In this document: piece by piece, positions 2,287-53,641 of the stretch
How positions within the stretch are numbered: position 1 is the first letter of the stretch
Layout: every line of letters starts with the position of its first letter
IMG/VR virus record: IMGVR_UViG_3300043470_000815
DNA: 64,000 bases
DNA from: a virus
Direction: 5' to 3' (one strand)
Notes under the pieces: generated by a model
What the model saw: the letters and a program-made list of their open reading frames with translations, nothing else
Told to the model about the DNA's origin: nothing
The model's database searches: none
Translations under genes and position numbers: made by a program

Positions 2287-3156
2287 TTAATTTTCTTCTT
2301 TAAATAAATTATCGAAATCAACATCAACGTCTTCACCGATTGGATCATGTGGTGTAACGGGTGCGTTCATTTCCTTTAAAAAAGAATCTTCTTTAACAAC
2401 GGGTTTTTCGGTAACAGGTGTTTTAGGATACAAATACGATTGAATCATTTCCTGTGTTTCGGCATAGGTTGGTTTTGTATGAAGATCAACAATATTTGGC
2501 ATATTCTTAATCATTTCCAAAACGTCTTTGTCATTTGACACTGGAGTTTCCTTTGGTTTAGGCAAAATCGAAATTTGTGGATAACCAGTTGCCGTCTTTT
2601 CCTTGGGCGTATATTCCATTGTAATATCACGACCAGTTTTCAAATCGAAAATGTTTCCATAATCGGGATCATTGGCAATTGCTTCTAAATCACGATACGT
2701 CTTTGGTGAAAACCACCAAAATTTAACACCTTCCAATTCAAGTCCGTTAGTTGTTTTACCATTAATATCCGTGTAAGAACGGACAATAATAGGCACACAA
2801 ATCCTTTGTTGTGGCTTGAATTTCAACGATGATTGCCAAAGGGTGCGATTTTTTTCTTTGTCCTTTTCACGGGTATATTCCGTTACTAAAGTTTGATAAA
2901 ATTCGGCAATGGCATCAGGTTCTTCAAATTGAACGGGAGCAAGTACCGTCCTACCAAACTCGTAATAAAAATCCAGCGGTAAATAAGGTTTACGATCCTT
3001 TCCCAAATGAAAATTAGGCAAAACACGAAAAACATATTTACCCTCCTGTGGAACAAATTTAACTTTGTTCGCTTCTGAAACCGTCCGTTCGGTCTTTGGT
3101 GTGTTAGCGGAATTTAAGGCATCCAACTTAGCCTGAATTTTTTGTGCAAAATCCAT
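2287..3156 (-). CDS. single-stranded DNA-binding protein (T4 gp32-like)
   Basis: FRVLP, GVKFWWF..KTY, DPDYG.IFD..TGRDI, acidic C-tail DVDFDNLF. Confidence 0.85.
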   Translation of the reverse strand: MDFAQKIQAKLDALNSANTPKTERTVSEANKVKFVPQEGKYVFRVLPNFHLGKDRKPYLPLDFYYEFGRTVLAPVQFEEPDAIAEFYQTLVTEYTREKDKEKNRTLWQSSLKFKPQQRICVPIIVRSYTDINGKTTNGLELEGVKFWWFSPKTYRDLEAIANDPDYGNIFDLKTGRDITMEYTPKEKTATGYPQISILPKPKETPVSNDKDVLEMIKNMPNIVDLHTKPTYAETQEMIQSYLYPKTPVTEKPVVKEDSFLKEMNAPVTPHDPIGEDVDVDFDNLFKEEN

Positions 3157-3219
3157 ACGATAAAAAATTAAAAAAAGTGTTTAAAAAATACCCTTTCGGG
3201 CGATTAAAAAAGTATAAAG

Positions 3220-3271
3220 ACAATATAAGTAAAGTTTTTGTAAAAACAAAATCAATTAACCGTTCATTAAC
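3220..3271 (-). promoter_or_regulatory. GTTAA-N6-GTTAA class promoter for SSB
   Basis: Minus strand GTTAA tgaacg GTTAA, TTTG, then TATATTGT 28 nt after the second box. Confidence 0.65.
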
Positions 3272-4412
3272 AAATAACATTGTAATTTTTACCAACCTTG
3301 AGTGTATTTGGTAATTCATTAAAAATGTTTTTTAGTCCAATAAGCGTTTCTTTTCCATCAGTTCTACATAAATCTATCAAAAACGAATCATAAGTGTAAA
3401 GTATCAATTTACTTTCACGGGTATATAAGTAGGCATTAATTTCAAAAATCAACAGGGCATTAAATTCCGTTTCAAAGTTCTGTAAAATGTAATTTAAAAC
3501 TTTGGTTTTGTTTAAATTTGGAATATTCATATCCCGTTCAAACATCAAACTTTTTAGATTATTTTCATTATACAATTGGAACAAATTGTTTGTTAAATTA
3601 TCAATCTTTTGGAAAAACTCAAACGACATGTATTTATCATCTATACCCCCATAAATCTGTTTAAATGTTTCGCCTTTAGGATCAATACCATCACCATACA
3701 AAGTTCCAAAATAGCCGTATATATCAGTGGTAGGCCAATCATATTTCACTATCCTAGAAAGTAGATAAATGTGAAATGCTTTTAGATCAAATTCAATTAA
3801 AATTCCATTATTACCGAACCGACTTACAAACCGTTCACGTGAATTATTCGATTTATTTAAAGCCGCGTAATTGATGTTATTGAAACTATTGGATGGACGA
3901 CCAGTTAATGTAAATAAATTGTATTCAGAATATTCGTAACCATTGATGGTATAAAGTCCATTACTTTCAATTGTTGCTAGATTTTGTTGTAATTTGGAAT
4001 ATTCATTTAGTGCTGACCATTGATTGAAATTATTATAAGCGAATAAAAATTCGTCTTTAATTGCCCTGACATAATAAAATAATTTTGTAATCGGAAAACA
4101 ATCTAAATTTTTGACTTGGGGGAGTGGATGTTTGATTACTTTATGATTTTGCATCCAAATTAAAATCTTTGCATCCAAGCAAGGTTGTTTTAAAATCTTT
4201 GAATTATAAACAAAATCGGTTGGGTAAATGGTTGGGAGTTGACCAGCCAAAGTATCATTGTGATTAATTCCAATAATATATTCAAGTTGCGTTTTTGGTT
4301 GGTAGGCATAAATAAAAGAAACATTATTCAACACCCAATGCTTCGCTGTGTATGAAAGCACGGGTATAAATAATGTTTCTTCGTCGTTTATTCTTTCTGT
4401 TACAAATTTCAT
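3267..4412 (-). CDS. short family A DNA polymerase-like protein (no exonuclease domains, thumb apparently deleted)
   Basis: TLTGRPS, motif A-like IEFDLKAFH, motif B-like K.ETFKQIYGG, motif C-like LYTYDSFL; only 381 aa. Confidence 0.8.
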   Translation of the reverse strand: MKFVTERINDEETLFIPVLSYTAKHWVLNNVSFIYAYQPKTQLEYIIGINHNDTLAGQLPTIYPTDFVYNSKILKQPCLDAKILIWMQNHKVIKHPLPQVKNLDCFPITKLFYYVRAIKDEFLFAYNNFNQWSALNEYSKLQQNLATIESNGLYTINGYEYSEYNLFTLTGRPSNSFNNINYAALNKSNNSRERFVSRFGNNGILIEFDLKAFHIYLLSRIVKYDWPTTDIYGYFGTLYGDGIDPKGETFKQIYGGIDDKYMSFEFFQKIDNLTNNLFQLYNENNLKSLMFERDMNIPNLNKTKVLNYILQNFETEFNALLIFEINAYLYTRESKLILYTYDSFLIDLCRTDGKETLIGLKNIFNELPNTLKVGKNYNVIC

Positions 4413-47876: not shown

Positions 47877-49691
47877 TTATAATTCTTGGTCTAAAATTTG
47901 ACTTTCATTTAACATATTTAGTTCCAAATCAGTTGTTACTTCTTCATTTAATGATTGTTTCGTGTTTTTAGTCATTTGTTTTGTTATCGAATTTACAATA
48001 TTTTCCTTAACACCTTTATCTAATTCACGTCTCCCCAACGGGTCACGACCAAACGCTTTATCTTTGACAGTTTCAAAAGATTTATACTTGTATGGTTGTC
48101 CTTCATTGTTTTCACGTTCATCGGGACTGTATAATTTTTCTAAACTTTCACTATCAGTTGCATTGAATTTAGAAGCAACCTGCATAGATGCAATATCGTG
48201 TGGTGTACCAAATGTTTTTCCTGTTACTTTAGGATCATTACCTTCTTCCGTAATTTGTGTATAACGGAATTTTTCTTTTAAGAAATTAGGCAGCCTTAAT
48301 TTTTCCTGTTTCCATTCACTTTCAGAAAGACCTAAAATATTTTCATATATATAAATATCCGACAATAAATTAGATTCTAATATATTTGCAATTAAGTTGA
48401 ACTTTTCATTTAATAGGTCAATTTTTTGACGTTCGTAAATTATGGATGGACTTGTTAATGATAATTCAAATCCAAGCAAATCTTCGTCTTTATGACCTTG
48501 TGAATGTAAATGTACAATAGCAATTTTATACAGTTCGGACACAAAGATTTTTTGATACCTTTCAATCATTTTGGCAAATCTAATGTCTTCCGCCGAAAGT
48601 GCCGTTTTTGCAGAACTTTCATCATATCCCAAATATGCTTTAGGAATTTTTAACGCAGCCATCATTTTAGATTTAAAGTATTCAACGTCGTCAATTTGTC
48701 CGTCGTTACCAAGTCCCGGCAATGTTTCGATACTTGTTCCCGATTTTCCACCCCGCACAGGTAAATAATAATCTTCTTGTGAATTTAATAAATTATATTT
48801 TAAATTTATTTCACCTGTTGACGGATCAATGTATGGAATTTTTTTCATTTCGGAAATGATTTGTTCCATGTGGCTTTCAATCTCGTTTGGTGGAATATTA
48901 CCAACATCAATTTTAATAATACGACGTTCGGGAGCTCTCATAATCCGATGCAATAACATAGCATCTTCCATCAATTTCATTGACTTGTAATCTTTTCTTG
49001 CACCTTCCAAGGATGACCGACCATACGGTAAAAAATTGGTATCTGTAATTAATCTAAAATGTGCTATTTCATATTGATTAAATGTACTTTGATTACTATA
49101 ATTTTGTCCATCCCCCTCATATCGAAATTTAACTTCGTTTGGGTCTTCACGTGTTCCTTCCTCCCTAACCATTAAACTAGGGTGGATTGGTAATACATTT
49201 ATTACACCGAACTTTTCACGAATTTCTAAGTATAAAAAGAAATCACCATATTTTGCCATTTGTCGAAACCAATGCCACATATTAAATTCTATGTTCATTA
49301 TATCGTAAAACAAATTATGTAATATTTTCTTTATTTCATTATCTTCACTATGTATTACTAACAATTCACCCGTCGCACTTACACTCGTGGATTCGTCAGC
49401 AATTATATCAAGTGCCGATGTTACAATACCGTCACTGTCCATCAATTCATAATCCAAATAAAGCATTTTTCGTAATGCTTCAATTTCATGGTTTACAAAC
49501 GATGAACCCCACCCACTGAACGACGCTGGAGAACGTCCATTCCGCCAACGTGCCTTTGCATTTTGGGGATCGGGACTTCCAGTACTTTGCGTTTTATTTA
49601 CGTCGAATGTCTTTAATCGTTTACCGGGTCGTTTGGTAACAACTACATTTCGTGTAAAAAGTCGTGAAAGTGTTTGTTGAAAGGTTGTCAT
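47877..49691 (-). CDS. portal protein (T4 gp20-like)
   Basis: YELMD.D.IV.SALDIIADE, LPYG.S.LE, MEDAML.HRI.RAPERR..IDVGN.P, EDYYLP.RG..SGT.IETLPG. Confidence 0.96.
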   Translation of the reverse strand: MTTFQQTLSRLFTRNVVVTKRPGKRLKTFDVNKTQSTGSPDPQNAKARWRNGRSPASFSGWGSSFVNHEIEALRKMLYLDYELMDSDGIVTSALDIIADESTSVSATGELLVIHSEDNEIKKILHNLFYDIMNIEFNMWHWFRQMAKYGDFFLYLEIREKFGVINVLPIHPSLMVREEGTREDPNEVKFRYEGDGQNYSNQSTFNQYEIAHFRLITDTNFLPYGRSSLEGARKDYKSMKLMEDAMLLHRIMRAPERRIIKIDVGNIPPNEIESHMEQIISEMKKIPYIDPSTGEINLKYNLLNSQEDYYLPVRGGKSGTSIETLPGLGNDGQIDDVEYFKSKMMAALKIPKAYLGYDESSAKTALSAEDIRFAKMIERYQKIFVSELYKIAIVHLHSQGHKDEDLLGFELSLTSPSIIYERQKIDLLNEKFNLIANILESNLLSDIYIYENILGLSESEWKQEKLRLPNFLKEKFRYTQITEEGNDPKVTGKTFGTPHDIASMQVASKFNATDSESLEKLYSPDERENNEGQPYKYKSFETVKDKAFGRDPLGRRELDKGVKENIVNSITKQMTKNTKQSLNEEVTTDLELNMLNESQILDQEL

Positions 49692-49715
49692 TTAATTATT
49701 AAATATTTTAAAAAA

Positions 49716-51131
49716 TTACAATAGCCATTTTAAACTTTCGGAATGATTGCCTATTCTTTGCTCCCATGCTGGATGACTTTGTTTGGCTGGATTGTAAACG
49801 TTTTTATGAACATTAGTTATTGATTGTTTAACTAATTCAATACCCATCTGCCTAAGTCGTAACGCGGTATCACGCACATATAAAAACATACAAAAACATA
49901 GTACTAAATCGTCATTGTAGCCGTTTTGTGCTTGTGGTTTACCATTGATCCACATAAATACACTGAATTGATTTATAAGTCGTTTAGAGTGTATAATTGG
50001 ACTTTTTTCACGGGTGTACATTTCTAGTTTAGAAATCATTACAGGTCGTAATACGTGGGTGGTTGTAAAGCCCGGAATCATATCTTCTTTATTTTTCAAA
50101 TCATACCGTTTCATTAGATGTATGTTTTCATCTAAATAAGGATCGTTCTTATAACTATAATATAAATTTTTGTAGCCTTTATCTAAGCACACTTGAACGG
50201 TTGACCACCCAATGTTTTTATTGTCAATTACTAATAACGCATCGTTGTATTCAGTCGCCACACTTACCAACATATTACCAAACATATTAGTATCAATTTT
50301 ACCTTCATATTCAGCCACTTGTTCCAAAGATTCCACGTCCATGACAATAAATGCACTACTATCTTCACCATCCCCACGTGCAACGTCAGCGACAACACAA
50401 TAAGATTTTGTATAATCGGGATATTTCCAAATCCAATAATCACCACCAATACCACGCCGCTCGGTTGGGTCGGTAGTTTTTTCGCGATAATATGCTAATA
50501 TATCAGATTCTATTACAGTGTGACCCGATGTTTCAAAAACGCAATCATTCTCTTGGGCAGCCATACGCTTACCCATCAATTCATCTTGTAAATCACGCCA
50601 TTTTTGGTCACGGTCAGGATGTCGTTTCCAATCTAAACGAATTGGGTTAAATGCACCAAATCCATCTTCTTTAATACCTTCTTCTGCCTGACACCAAAGT
50701 TTATAAAATATACCTTGAGCACCGTTTGGAGTTGATAAAATTATTGCATTACCACCTGTTGCCAATGTCATTTGAGCCGATGTCCAAATTTCATTAGCAC
50801 TTTCCATAAACGCACAATTATGACTAACTAAACCATTCGTGAAATATTCATTATTTAATTTAACATCTATTACATCATATACATAAAAATCCCCTTCCTC
50901 ATAAGAAATTTCACATATTACGTCACCCCCCCACAATTCATCACCAATCAAACAAAAACTTGCTTCTAAAAATTGTCCGTTTGGATATTTTAATAAATGA
51001 CCACTTGTACATTTTAATATATTATTGTTTGTTTTAATTGTAAATAAAATATCAGTGGTAGTTCGTTGTACACCATCAAAATCACTCCAACCATCAGGGG
51101 TTAATATTAAATAGTCATTATTATTTTTCAT
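49716..51131 (-). CDS. terL: terminase large subunit C-part, preceded by a 105-aa C-intein
   Basis: ...NGLVSHN/CAF junction, ILSTPNG, ADVARGDG.D.S, A..GYNDDLV. Confidence 0.93.
   Translation of the reverse strand: MKNNNDYLILTPDGWSDFDGVQRTTTDILFTIKTNNNILKCTSGHLLKYPNGQFLEASFCLIGDELWGGDVICEISYEEGDFYVYDVIDVKLNNEYFTNGLVSHNCAFMESANEIWTSAQMTLATGGNAIILSTPNGAQGIFYKLWCQAEEGIKEDGFGAFNPIRLDWKRHPDRDQKWRDLQDELMGKRMAAQENDCVFETSGHTVIESDILAYYREKTTDPTERRGIGGDYWIWKYPDYTKSYCVVADVARGDGEDSSAFIVMDVESLEQVAEYEGKIDTNMFGNMLVSVATEYNDALLVIDNKNIGWSTVQVCLDKGYKNLYYSYKNDPYLDENIHLMKRYDLKNKEDMIPGFTTTHVLRPVMISKLEMYTREKSPIIHSKRLINQFSVFMWINGKPQAQNGYNDDLVLCFCMFLYVRDTALRLRQMGIELVKQSITNVHKNVYNPAKQSHPAWEQRIGNHSESLKWLL
50817..51131 (-). 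mobile_element. split intein C-fragment (105 aa)
   Basis: ILTPDGWSDF, block B CTSGH, block F YVYDVIDV, block G NGLVSHN followed by Cys. Confidence 0.92.
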
Positions 51132-52197
51132 AAAATTGCCTCATTGCATATTTTACGGTTGGATGGTTGGTTAAATCAATTTTATTGATATTTTTTTTGA
51201 ACCATTTATTTGTTATCAGAACATATTTTAAATTATTGTCTTTGGCATATTTTTTTGCAAATTTATATTTTACTAAATTTCTTTCAGTATTTTTCTCCGA
51301 ATCGGGTTTAATTTCGTATATAATTTTATTTATAGGATCGTAGAAATCTACAATATAATTGTGCCAATTATCTTGATATGTATATTTTATTCTAATTTTT
51401 TCATATTCTAATTGTGGATTACACAACCAAAAAAACGCATCCCAATTACTTCTAAATTTTTTAACAGTTCCATCTTCCAAATTTACAATAGCATTCCAAC
51501 GTGTCCATGAATTAGTTATACATGGAGTAAATTCACCATTTGCAATCATTAACTTCATTGTTTCTGAATGCTTTTTATGAGTGGCTTCTGTATATATGAA
51601 TGGACGACGTTTTTTAAATTCGTCTGAATTACTTGTAATTTTATTGGATTCTGATAATTTTTTTTTCGTTTCTAATGTATGCCAAGGTTTTCCGTTTGAT
51701 CTCCTAGTTTCTATACCTTTTTGAATTGATTCTTTGGAAAAAACTTGATTTTTTCGATTTATACGCATTTTCATTCGTTGTTCATCTGAAAATGTTCTAG
51801 TTTCAAGATAATTCATAAATCGGTCTTTAATATTTTTCTTATTTTCATCAGACATATTTTCATAGGCTTTTTTACCACTTTCCGAACCCTGCTTACGTTT
51901 ACATTCTCTATTGGTGCAATTATTTCGGAATAACGCACTATTTTCATTGAATGCTGTTTTATTATCACAATATTTACATTTTACAATATCAGTTTTGTAA
52001 TGTTTAATATAAGTTATTCGTTCTTTTAATGATACATTGTAACTATTTAAAAATGTGGTAGATGAATATATCATTTTATAAATATATTGTATATCATTTT
52101 TTACATACCATTGTTCATTTAATGCCCAATGGATCATTTTATCATTCTTAAAAATTTTATCAATTATAATATTATAATCATTCATCTGTATATTCAT
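51121..52197 (-). CDS. free-standing endonuclease inserted in the terminase intein
   Basis: CKYC..C....C Zn motif, NUMOD3-like H..ET.KKLSES repeats, C-terminal RS.W...EYE..RI.Y...NY.VDF....IYEIKP PD-(D/E)xK. Confidence 0.8.
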   Translation of the reverse strand: MNIQMNDYNIIIDKIFKNDKMIHWALNEQWYVKNDIQYIYKMIYSSTTFLNSYNVSLKERITYIKHYKTDIVKCKYCDNKTAFNENSALFRNNCTNRECKRKQGSESGKKAYENMSDENKKNIKDRFMNYLETRTFSDEQRMKMRINRKNQVFSKESIQKGIETRRSNGKPWHTLETKKKLSESNKITSNSDEFKKRRPFIYTEATHKKHSETMKLMIANGEFTPCITNSWTRWNAIVNLEDGTVKKFRSNWDAFFWLCNPQLEYEKIRIKYTYQDNWHNYIVDFYDPINKIIYEIKPDSEKNTERNLVKYKFAKKYAKDNNLKYVLITNKWFKKNINKIDLTNHPTVKYAMRQFYEK

Positions 52198-52768
52198 ATA
52201 AAGTTTTTATTTTAATATTTTCAACTATACCAGTTTTTCTATTTTTAATGGTAACAACTGTTTCACCATCCACGCATTCATCCAAAATCAATAAACTAAC
52301 AGCCGAACCGCGAGCGGAATCGGGTTTACTTGACACTGCTTTAATTTGCGACCCATTACTTAAAACTAATTCTAATTTATTATTATTAGTGATTTTAGCA
52401 ACATTTCGCATCCACACAGGTAAGTTATCGTACATCACTTGAACCATTTTTACAATATTTCGAGCAACATCCTGTTTGGTCGCAATAATAAGAATTTTGA
52501 AATTCTCTTTGAATAACATTTGTTGCAAACTGTACATTGCAGTCAATGTACTTATGCCCATCTGCCTAGATTTCAAAACAATATTGAACCTATGATTTTG
52601 GAAGTCTAATAGTGTAGAAACTTGAAAAGGGTATAGATCGAACTTGATCTTACCCTTCATTGGATGTTCAATCATGCAATATTCCTTAGAAAAATATGCA
52701 ACATCGGTGGCACATCGTTCTAATTCTTGCTTAATTACATCACGTATATTTTGCGTTTGACTAGGAAT
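52178..52768 (-). CDS. terL: terminase large subunit N-part plus 32-aa N-intein; probable ATT start
   Basis: LYPFQ, KSRQMGIS (Walker A region), ARG..VSLLILDE (Walker B) then CVDGET; frame open 31 codons upstream of the tracked ATG (52675). Confidence 0.88.
   Translation of the reverse strand: MPSQTQNIRDVIKQELERCATDVAYFSKEYCMIEHPMKGKIKFDLYPFQVSTLLDFQNHRFNIVLKSRQMGISTLTAMYSLQQMLFKENFKILIIATKQDVARNIVKMVQVMYDNLPVWMRNVAKITNNNKLELVLSNGSQIKAVSSKPDSARGSAVSLLILDECVDGETVVTIKNRKTGIVENIKIKTLYEYTDE
52181..52276 (-). mobile_element. split intein N-fragment (32 aa)
   Basis: CVDGETVVTIKNRKTGIVENIKIKTLYEYTDE* is intein block A. Confidence 0.9.
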
Positions 52769-52791
52769 ACATTTCTCCTATGCTTTTATTT

Positions 52792-53421
52792 TTAAATTTC
52801 GCCTAATTTTTCGGCTATTTTATTTTTAAATTCTGAATATTGACTATCAATTTGGTCAATTAGATATTGTGGATTTTCATTTGTCCATGTTTCAGTACGA
52901 CCATCCGCCCCCTCTATAAAATTAATTGGCTGTGAAATTTCACGTTTTAATTGTTCGACTTCATCATCGGTTTGTTTTAAAAATACTTTAGCATTATTTT
53001 TTATTTTTTCTAAAGCATATTCATTAAATTCACCTTTAATTTTTAATTGTGTTTCTAAAGTCAAAACGCATTCGTGACATTTACCAACCAACCCCTTAAA
53101 TTTTTTATCTAGGTTGGATGGATTTGTACAAGTGCAAACATCTTTAGGGCAATTTTGAAACGTCCGTAAATAATTTCTAATATCTTGAACATTTTCATCT
53201 AAATTTAACAATACTTTTACACGGTATCCATCTTTTTGTTCCCATTTGTAAGAAACACCTGTGATTGGATGTGTTTCGACCCACACATCACCAACATCAT
53301 GTTTAGCGTTACGTGCAACCACAGTATTTACATCGGTTAATCCAAATGTTTTACGGGTTTGGGTTTTATGTTCACCCTTTAGCATTTCTGTAACTGCTTG
53401 TATATTTTTTAGTTTAGCCAT
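52792..53421 (-). CDS. hypothetical protein with Cys cluster
   Basis: VGDVW.E..W.QKDGY, CP...C.C...C.EC; upstream of terL. Confidence 0.7.
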   Translation of the reverse strand: MAKLKNIQAVTEMLKGEHKTQTRKTFGLTDVNTVVARNAKHDVGDVWVETHPITGVSYKWEQKDGYRVKVLLNLDENVQDIRNYLRTFQNCPKDVCTCTNPSNLDKKFKGLVGKCHECVLTLETQLKIKGEFNEYALEKIKNNAKVFLKQTDDEVEQLKREISQPINFIEGADGRTETWTNENPQYLIDQIDSQYSEFKNKIAEKLGEI

Positions 53422-53641
53422 TAGATTTTAATTGTTTCATATTTGACATAAATGATTCCAGTTTGTTTTCTTCGATACCAACCAACCCCGCAAATTTAAT
53501 AATTGCATGATATTTGTCTAACGGCATTTTTAATTCATTTATCGCAGTGATGAATGATGGTGTATTTTGTAATTTATCAAAAAGTAACAATATGGTAGCC
53601 GTACCATCGGATTGCTCTTGTAAAAGTTTTTTTAGTTTCAT
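53414..53641 (-). CDS. protein with MKLKKLLQE leader
   Basis: Shared leader; start moved to MKL. Confidence 0.6.
   Translation of the reverse strand: MKLKKLLQEQSDGTATILLLFDKLQNTPSFITAINELKMPLDKYHAIIKFAGLVGIEENKLESFMSNMKQLKSNG

Follow-up and report, generated by a model that had tools for sequence, protein, structure and literature searches.

A phage large terminase gene fractured at Walker B, with a TnsA-like endonuclease gene in the break, and predicted to require protein trans-splicing

Natural split inteins with a very short N-terminal fragment (IntN) are rare and useful. The atypically split inteins AceL-TerL, GOS-TerL and Cat were reportedly described by Thiel in 2014, by Bachmann and Mootz in 2015, and by Stevens in 2018. 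The available part of the 2009 report of Dassa et al. (PMC2677866) describes a fractured gp17 terminase from Lake Gatun with the same unusual break as the one considered here. In that part, the end of the endonuclease gene overlaps the downstream start by 6-69 base pairs (bp), and the endonuclease is preceded by a non-coding leader of 27-51 nucleotides (nt), in which a hairpin and a T4 late promoter are frequent. The canonical split sites, like every known endonuclease domain of an intein, are placed there further downstream, between the N4 and C2 motifs. The endonucleases of these fractured genes are assigned, in the available text of the two sources, to the GIY-YIG and Vsr-like (EDxHD) families (PMC2677866; PMC3239194). 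According to a review (PMC11766414), Cat is the consensus of the atypically split terminase inteins AceL-TerL and GOS-TerL, both of which trans-splice in vitro and whose IntN fragments comprise 25 and 37 amino acids (aa), respectively. In the present study, we analyzed the large terminase gene (terL) of a T4-like phage in the IMG/VR virus record IMGVR_UViG_3300043470_000815. The window, that is, the whole stretch of DNA analyzed, comprises 64,000 nt, and the locus occupies positions 49,716 to 52,768. With a probability of roughly 85%, this terL is a fractured gene whose product would have to be made by protein trans-splicing.

Three intact open reading frames (ORFs) were found on the minus strand, 52178..52675, 51121..52197 and 49716..51131, which correspond to the terminase's N-terminal part (TerL-N), an endonuclease and the terminase's C-terminal part (TerL-C). 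TerL-N consists of the N-extein and a 32-aa IntN (52181-52768), and TerL-C consists of a 105-aa C-terminal intein fragment (IntC) and the C-extein (49719-51131). The features are listed below.

52277-52768, minus strand: TerL N-extein, 164 aa; holds the N-terminal portion of the ATPase, including Walker A and Walker B, and closes with LILDE.
52181-52276, minus strand: IntN, 32 aa; the Cys1 codon (52274-52276) directly follows the Walker B Glu; stop codon at 52178-52180.
51121-52197, minus strand: endonuclease encoded by a free-standing gene; 358 aa, or 354 aa when counted from its second ATG (52185).
50817-51131, minus strand: IntC, 105 aa; contains blocks B (TSGH), F and G and finishes with SHN.
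49719-50816, minus strand: TerL C-extein, 366 aa; begins with the +1 Cys (50814-50816) and comprises the remaining ATPase portion plus the nuclease domain; stop codon at 49716-49718.

TerL-N, the endonuclease and TerL-C are all read in different frames. The endonuclease gene overlaps TerL-N by 20 nt and TerL-C by 11 nt; counted from its second ATG, which was picked by two gene callers, the overlap with TerL-N is 8 nt. The two terminase halves are separated by 0 non-coding bases. The start codon of TerL-C, an ATG at 51131, lies inside the last endonuclease codons, with GAGG 7 nt upstream. These results agreed with the initial annotation of this DNA, which had described a terminase split into two genes with the same intein fragment lengths and overlaps.

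Both halves were recognized as terminase. TerL-N matched the Pfam family TerL_ATPase (E 9.6e-10) and phrog_5989 (E 1.3e-35), and TerL-C had the PHROGs terminase matches phrog_2 and phrog_24361. In TerL-N, the Walker B motif LILDE was followed by a 32-aa tail beginning with Cys, and the first 105 aa of TerL-C ended in SHN and were followed by CAF. When the N-extein and the C-extein were joined, the resulting 530-aa sequence was colinear with uninterrupted TerL proteins, with no gap at the junction; its identity was 49-50% with the TerL of Microcystis phage Mel-JY01 and Flavobacterium phage immuto, and 63% with that of two IMG/VR relatives (L008 and L009). The C-extein shared 48% identity with the two phage proteins and 65% with the two relatives, and these alignments began exactly at the junction. 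The gap-free alignment bore out the earlier proposal that joining the halves restores the Walker B region as LILDE-CAF. The alignment of TerL-N with T4-type gp17 structures reached the residues IDEC. In T4 gp17, this Asp-Glu pair is the end of Walker B and the catalytic carboxylate. Because this pair closes Walker B in T4 gp17, the intein is placed by its sequence context within the ATPase center of TerL.

IntC matched the PDB chain 6DSL_B, named "Consensus engineered intein CatC", over residues 3-106 (phmmer E 2.1e-12, 50 bits). Since IntC gave this match and the joined exteins were colinear with TerL over about 530 aa, the locus is not a chance pattern. The CatC crystal chain carries an engineered C-extein, so its alignment gives no native insertion site. 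IntC had homologues with 58-70% identity. The window contained the residues of a class-1 intein, namely Cys1, block B (TSGH), block F with an Asp and an aromatic/TNG motif, the terminal His-Asn and the +1 Cys. Eight sequences were aligned, namely the window IntN and IntC, five further split pairs and two relatives with a contiguous intein. Block B (T/S-x-x-H) and block F were kept in split and contiguous forms alike, as were Cys1, the +1 Cys and the terminal His-Asn. IntN aligned with the IntN of four related loci (L035, L036, L041 and L044) and of Campylobacter phage CP81 (tblastn E 1.6e-6), and with the first ~30 residues of the contiguous inteins of a Desulfovibrio phage and of a second site in L035 (site B). 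A comparison with contiguous mini-inteins had been suggested at the outset, and both Nitratidesulfovibrio phage SRB7757 and L035 site B shared the splicing residues with the window.

The intein is broken upstream of block B, in a short loop that follows its first ~30 residues, so that block B lies within IntC. A 32-aa IntN and a 105-aa IntC in separate ORFs, with the break between blocks A and B, together with the match of IntC to CatC, support the initial assignment of an atypically split intein. Like AceL-TerL, GOS-TerL and Cat, the intein resides in a phage large terminase and carries the Cys1 and Cys+1 of class-1 chemistry. Its IntN of 32 aa compares with 25-37 aa in these inteins, and its IntC of 105 aa, with block B inside, compares with 104-122 aa. 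Unlike them, the intein in the window is a distinct, diverged sequence known from its genes alone. Within the clade, the identity of IntC was 56-65% and that of the exteins was 59-68%, i.e., the two diverge at similar rates. Since IntC identity tracks extein identity, the sequences indicate that IntC is under purifying selection rather than decaying. The TerL intein family was found at no fewer than two terL sites among the loci examined, Walker B and QE|C.

The locus was then compared with the fractured genes of 2009. As in the loci described in the available part of that report (PMC2677866), the N-extein with IntN, a free-standing endonuclease, and IntC with the C-extein follow each other on one strand in DNA of phage origin, and the 11-nt overlap between the endonuclease and TerL-C lies within the 6-69 bp given there. 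That fractured genes with split inteins and free-standing endonucleases were already known, as the initial annotation had stated, is thus confirmed to the extent that this source covers them. The window locus adds a further case to an established arrangement that occurs commonly in viral metagenomes. As a type it is not new, because the gp17 locus was published in 2009, AceL-TerL and GOS-TerL have been characterised, and the consensus has been solved (PDB 6DSL). The locus differs from the known cases in the endonuclease family, in the absent non-coding leader and in the ATT start codon. The initial annotation had also presented a new natural short-IntN intein. It is a distinct natural variant, but its novelty was overstated, since the gp17 case was published in 2009 and dozens of public contigs carry the arrangement.

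On these grounds, we propose the following mechanism. A class-1 mini-intein of the AceL-TerL/GOS-TerL/Cat family would separate the catalytic Glu of Walker B from the Cys that follows it. This intein would be interrupted after ~30 residues, with the TnsA-like endonuclease gene filling the break. Two polypeptides would be made, the N-extein-IntN of 196 aa and the IntC-C-extein of 471 aa. The short IntN would dock on the nearly complete IntC to rebuild the HINT fold, and trans-splicing would proceed by Cys1, the Thr/His of block B, the terminal His-Asn and the +1 Cys, yielding a 530-aa TerL with an intact ATPase center (LILDE-CAF). The endonuclease would be a homing-type selfish gene whose 3' end provides the ribosome-binding site and the start codon of TerL-C. 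We infer that splicing occurs and that packaging requires it; likewise, the endonuclease is presumably active and homing, and its insertion may have caused the intein to split.

Three other explanations were weighed. The two halves might assemble non-covalently, with the intein fragments serving as a dimerisation module and no peptide bond being formed. Such assembly reportedly has a precedent in the fragmented Aeh1 NrdA (PMC3045599). We regard it as improbable here, however, since all splicing residues are kept in the window and in relatives diverged to 30-65% identity, an unspliced intein of 137 aa would be lodged right at Walker B's catalytic Glu, and homologous TerL inteins splice according to the review (PMC11766414). 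It is also conceivable that the interruption is removed at the level of RNA or translation, by a group I intron, by bypassing or by two frameshifts, after which a contiguous intein would splice in cis. The terL of ICP1 is spliced at the RNA level (PMC10448857), and read-through forms are exemplified by Escherichia phage vB_Eco_TB34 (a Krischvirus), whose IntN continues in frame into a related endonuclease. In the window, however, the three ORFs lie in three frames with no non-coding sequence between the terminase halves, no slippery heptamer was seen in the overlaps, and the search of Rfam 15 over 49000-53500 on both strands gave no family at E <= 1. The N-terminus of the endonuclease coincided in the alignment with that of most full-length homologues, and relatives without the endonuclease still stop and restart between the halves. 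Removal of this kind is accordingly very unlikely. A group I or group II intron between the halves was rejected, as there was neither an Rfam match nor non-coding sequence, which upheld the earlier statement that no room is left for an intron ribozyme.

The least probable explanation, to which we give hardly any weight, is a broken and non-functional gene, either in a defective phage or through an assembly artefact. Nothing but the interruption itself speaks for it. Assemblies of at least three further samples contained the locus; it was identical to the window in two contigs (L038 and L040) and differed by 2 single-nucleotide polymorphisms (SNPs) in a third (L039), all from different samples and over 8.4 kilobases (kb), and the exact TerL-C protein was present, with the same three genes, on JGI, ENA and Logan contigs from different samples. 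Because contigs from different samples were identical or 2 SNPs apart over this length, misassembly is excluded. The assemblies came from different pipelines as well as different samples, the three ORFs are intact, and the arrangement is kept in dozens of diverged phages. In view of these identical independent assemblies, the concern raised at the start that a misassembly or frameshift had divided one gene was rejected.

We therefore return to trans-splicing as the preferred reading, against which several points must be set. The splicing of this intein is predicted from sequence, and the phage and its host are uncultured. The IntN of the window, taken alone, had no match among solved structures, the peptide being too short; the IntN of L044 likewise gave nothing usable for the same reason. 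The endonuclease gene is not preceded by the non-coding leader with a hairpin or late promoter described for the 2009 loci (PMC2677866), and it overlaps TerL-N instead. Finally, TerL-N must either begin at a non-canonical ATT or be truncated and begin at the ATG at 52675.

The start of TerL-N was examined along its upstream frame, which is open from 52777. Between 52777 and the first ATG at 52675, this frame contained no ATG, GTG or TTG, and its codon at 52768 was ATT. The N-termini of intein-less homologues fell at most two residues from this ATT, and the window and L035 had the same AGGAG-N6-ATT at the TerL-N start. For these two reasons, 52768 was taken as the start, and TerL-N is probably initiated at this ATT, 6 nt after AGGAG. 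Across this phage clade, too, the N-terminal terL gene begins at non-ATG codons, and in each case a strong Shine-Dalgarno sequence lies 6-10 nt upstream. The start codons were ATT in the window (start region 52766-52779) and L035 (4395-4415), ATA in L028 (~2118-2137), CTG in L008 (~1322-1340), and TTG in L041 (~1513-1536) and L036. These non-ATG starts suggest selection for weak terminase initiation in the clade.

The endonuclease matched PF08722 (TnsA-like endonuclease N-terminal) with 29.0 bits against a gathering cut-off of 26.5, and phrog_15427 with E 4e-25. It consists of an N-terminal helical domain, a four-Cys motif, a helical repeat region and a C-terminal nuclease domain, the last being a TnsA-like PD-(D/E)xK domain at about residues 210-345 (51163-51570). 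Among 253 homologues, some carried Pfam NUMOD3 (PF07460), matching the helical repeat region. In an alignment of 33 endonuclease sequences, the catalytic residues D284 and E295 were invariant and K297 nearly so, and an R-S-x-W-(E/D) motif was invariant or nearly so. The same alignment showed the four-Cys motif (C74, C77, C94 and C99) with C94 and C99 invariant and C74 and C77 nearly invariant, and this motif probably binds zinc. No conserved His or second Asp of the EDxHD motif was found after the third strand in these 33 sequences. Since a sequence search against the PDB gave no match, classification of the endonuclease needed a predicted structure. In the AlphaFold2 model (mean pLDDT 91), the best match of the nuclease domain was TnsA, with a Foldseek probability of 1.00 and, in VIA-align, a Z of 9.2 and a root-mean-square deviation of 3.4 over 126 residues for 1T0F_B; the next row after TnsA had a Z of 6.3, and I-Bth0305I (3R3P) had a Z of 5.4. 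Because TnsA was the best fold match and I-Bth0305I reached only Z 5.4, the model identifies the endonuclease as a TnsA-like PD-(D/E)xK enzyme, outside the GIY-YIG and Vsr-like (EDxHD) families.

This assignment separates the enzyme from its counterparts. Unlike the families named in the available part of the 2009 report (PMC2677866), it is TnsA-like with a canonical D...ExK motif. It resembles I-Bth0305I and the EDxHD enzymes (PMC3239194) in combining an N-terminal DNA-binding region (of the NUMOD type in relatives) with a C-terminal nuclease of the restriction-endonuclease fold, and in being tied to phage intervening sequences; unlike them, it carries D284 and E295-x-K297, with no His or second Asp. 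In structure and in Pfam, its nuclease domain matches TnsA best, the endonuclease subunit of the Tn7 transposase (PDB 1F1Z, 1T0F), and it shares the PD-(D/E)xK catalytic arrangement with TnsA. Unlike TnsA, it has no Tn7 partners, lacks the TnsA C-terminal domain, bears another N-terminal DNA-binding module, and is encoded by a free-standing gene inside a phage intein. The modestly new element here is this endonuclease family, TnsA-like rather than GIY-YIG or Vsr-like as in the 2009 paper.

The distribution of the endonuclease followed the terminase site. All full-length relatives examined lay between TerL-N/IntN and IntC/TerL-C, and the same layout with a TnsA-like endonuclease was present in L041, L046, L047 and L049. 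At this terL site there were 32 IMG/VR loci, comprising 27 of the 27 with an endonuclease alignment of at least 329 residues and five with a shorter form. By comparison, 47 loci with a partial endonuclease and without a terminase flank lay elsewhere (42 with the nuclease domain only and five of about 300 residues), and one further nuclease-domain-only locus had an N-extein match upstream only. This distribution fits a site-specific homing enzyme whose N-terminal part would recognise this target. The presence of the element is sporadic, its closest intein-free relatives being L008, L009 and about 20 others. In the searchable open-access literature, we found no link of one TnsA-like endonuclease lineage to this intein site, and no description of TnsA-like homing endonucleases was found in the open-access literature. 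A tentative reading, which we regard as possible rather than probable, is that the endonuclease represents an undescribed homing lineage, combining a D/ExK nuclease, the four-Cys motif and a NUMOD-type region, that is dedicated to the loop following the initial ~30 residues of the Walker-B intein in TerL and that has produced, and keeps up to now, the only known naturally "atypical" split site. Its variants, including terL in three pieces, would then form a ready-made panel of short-IntN inteins that are possibly mutually orthogonal.

Related loci presented several variants of this arrangement. Phage SRB7757 carries a contiguous mini-intein at the same terL site. L035 and L036 have no endonuclease, yet a stop and a restart lie between IntN and IntC. 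Since these loci keep the halves as separate ORFs, two-piece expression is the native state of the intein. In L035 (4410-6827), the only interruption is an in-frame TAG followed by TTG, and the TerL-C of this locus also contains a second, contiguous intein of 136 aa that belongs to the same family and lies at the QE|C site. In phage TB34 (L004, 3213-6360), the annotation divides the terminase into two ORFs. Of these, the first comprises the N-extein and IntN, fused in frame to a TnsA-like endonuclease (583 aa in all), and the second begins with IntC, 20 nt inside the first. This form may stand midway between an intein that contains its endonuclease and an endonuclease that is free-standing. 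In phage CP81 (NC_042112), terL2 (L002, 2324-3040) ends with a 31-aa IntN right after Walker B, and an IntC of this family, 100 aa long, forms the beginning of terL1 (L003, 2504-3832); about 23 kb separate the two genes, which are on opposite strands. The same split match pattern was seen in many Fletchervirus genomes, and no description of terL1 and terL2 of CP81 as a split intein was found in the open-access literature. In L044, an intein of this family occupies the QE|C site together with a GIY-YIG endonuclease, before which come a hairpin, TATAAATA and AAGGAG, and this arrangement matches the fractured-gene description of 2009. In L047 (1891-5065), L062-L064, L067 and L068, terL is in three pieces, with homologous atypically split inteins at Walker B and QE|C, each with its own endonuclease gene.

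These relatives illustrate stages in the life cycle of an intein and its endonuclease, from contiguous and endonuclease-fused through endonuclease-split to endonuclease-lost and dispersed forms. For the three-piece terL, one may also ask what keeps the two similar IntN/IntC pairs from cross-splicing. For application, an IntN of about 30 aa can be made synthetically, which allows protein labelling at the N-terminus. The TerL split-intein family is large: its diverged natural IntN/IntC pairs, at two sites in terL, number in the dozens, and they are material for faster, more tolerant or orthogonal pairs. The locus itself would be a clear case of protein trans-splicing on which an essential phage gene depends.

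Regulatory signals in the window were also scanned. The scan for promoters and terminators gave 38 promoter-like sites against 24 expected, which is not above AT-rich chance, and the T4 late-promoter consensus TATAAATA occurred 22 times against 18 expected, i.e., it was not enriched. One TATAAATA was observed at 51327-51334 on the minus strand, within the endonuclease gene and about 200 nt before the TerL-C start, and is a lead only. Two further observations were made in relatives. L028 and L029, which have no intein at Walker B, carry a 1.1-kb insertion (2890-4001) at a third terL site, between C-extein residues 89 and 91. In L036 (2531-5815), the portal gene (1094 aa) contains an intein, with the Pfam match Intein_splicing lying between two Portal_T4 matches.

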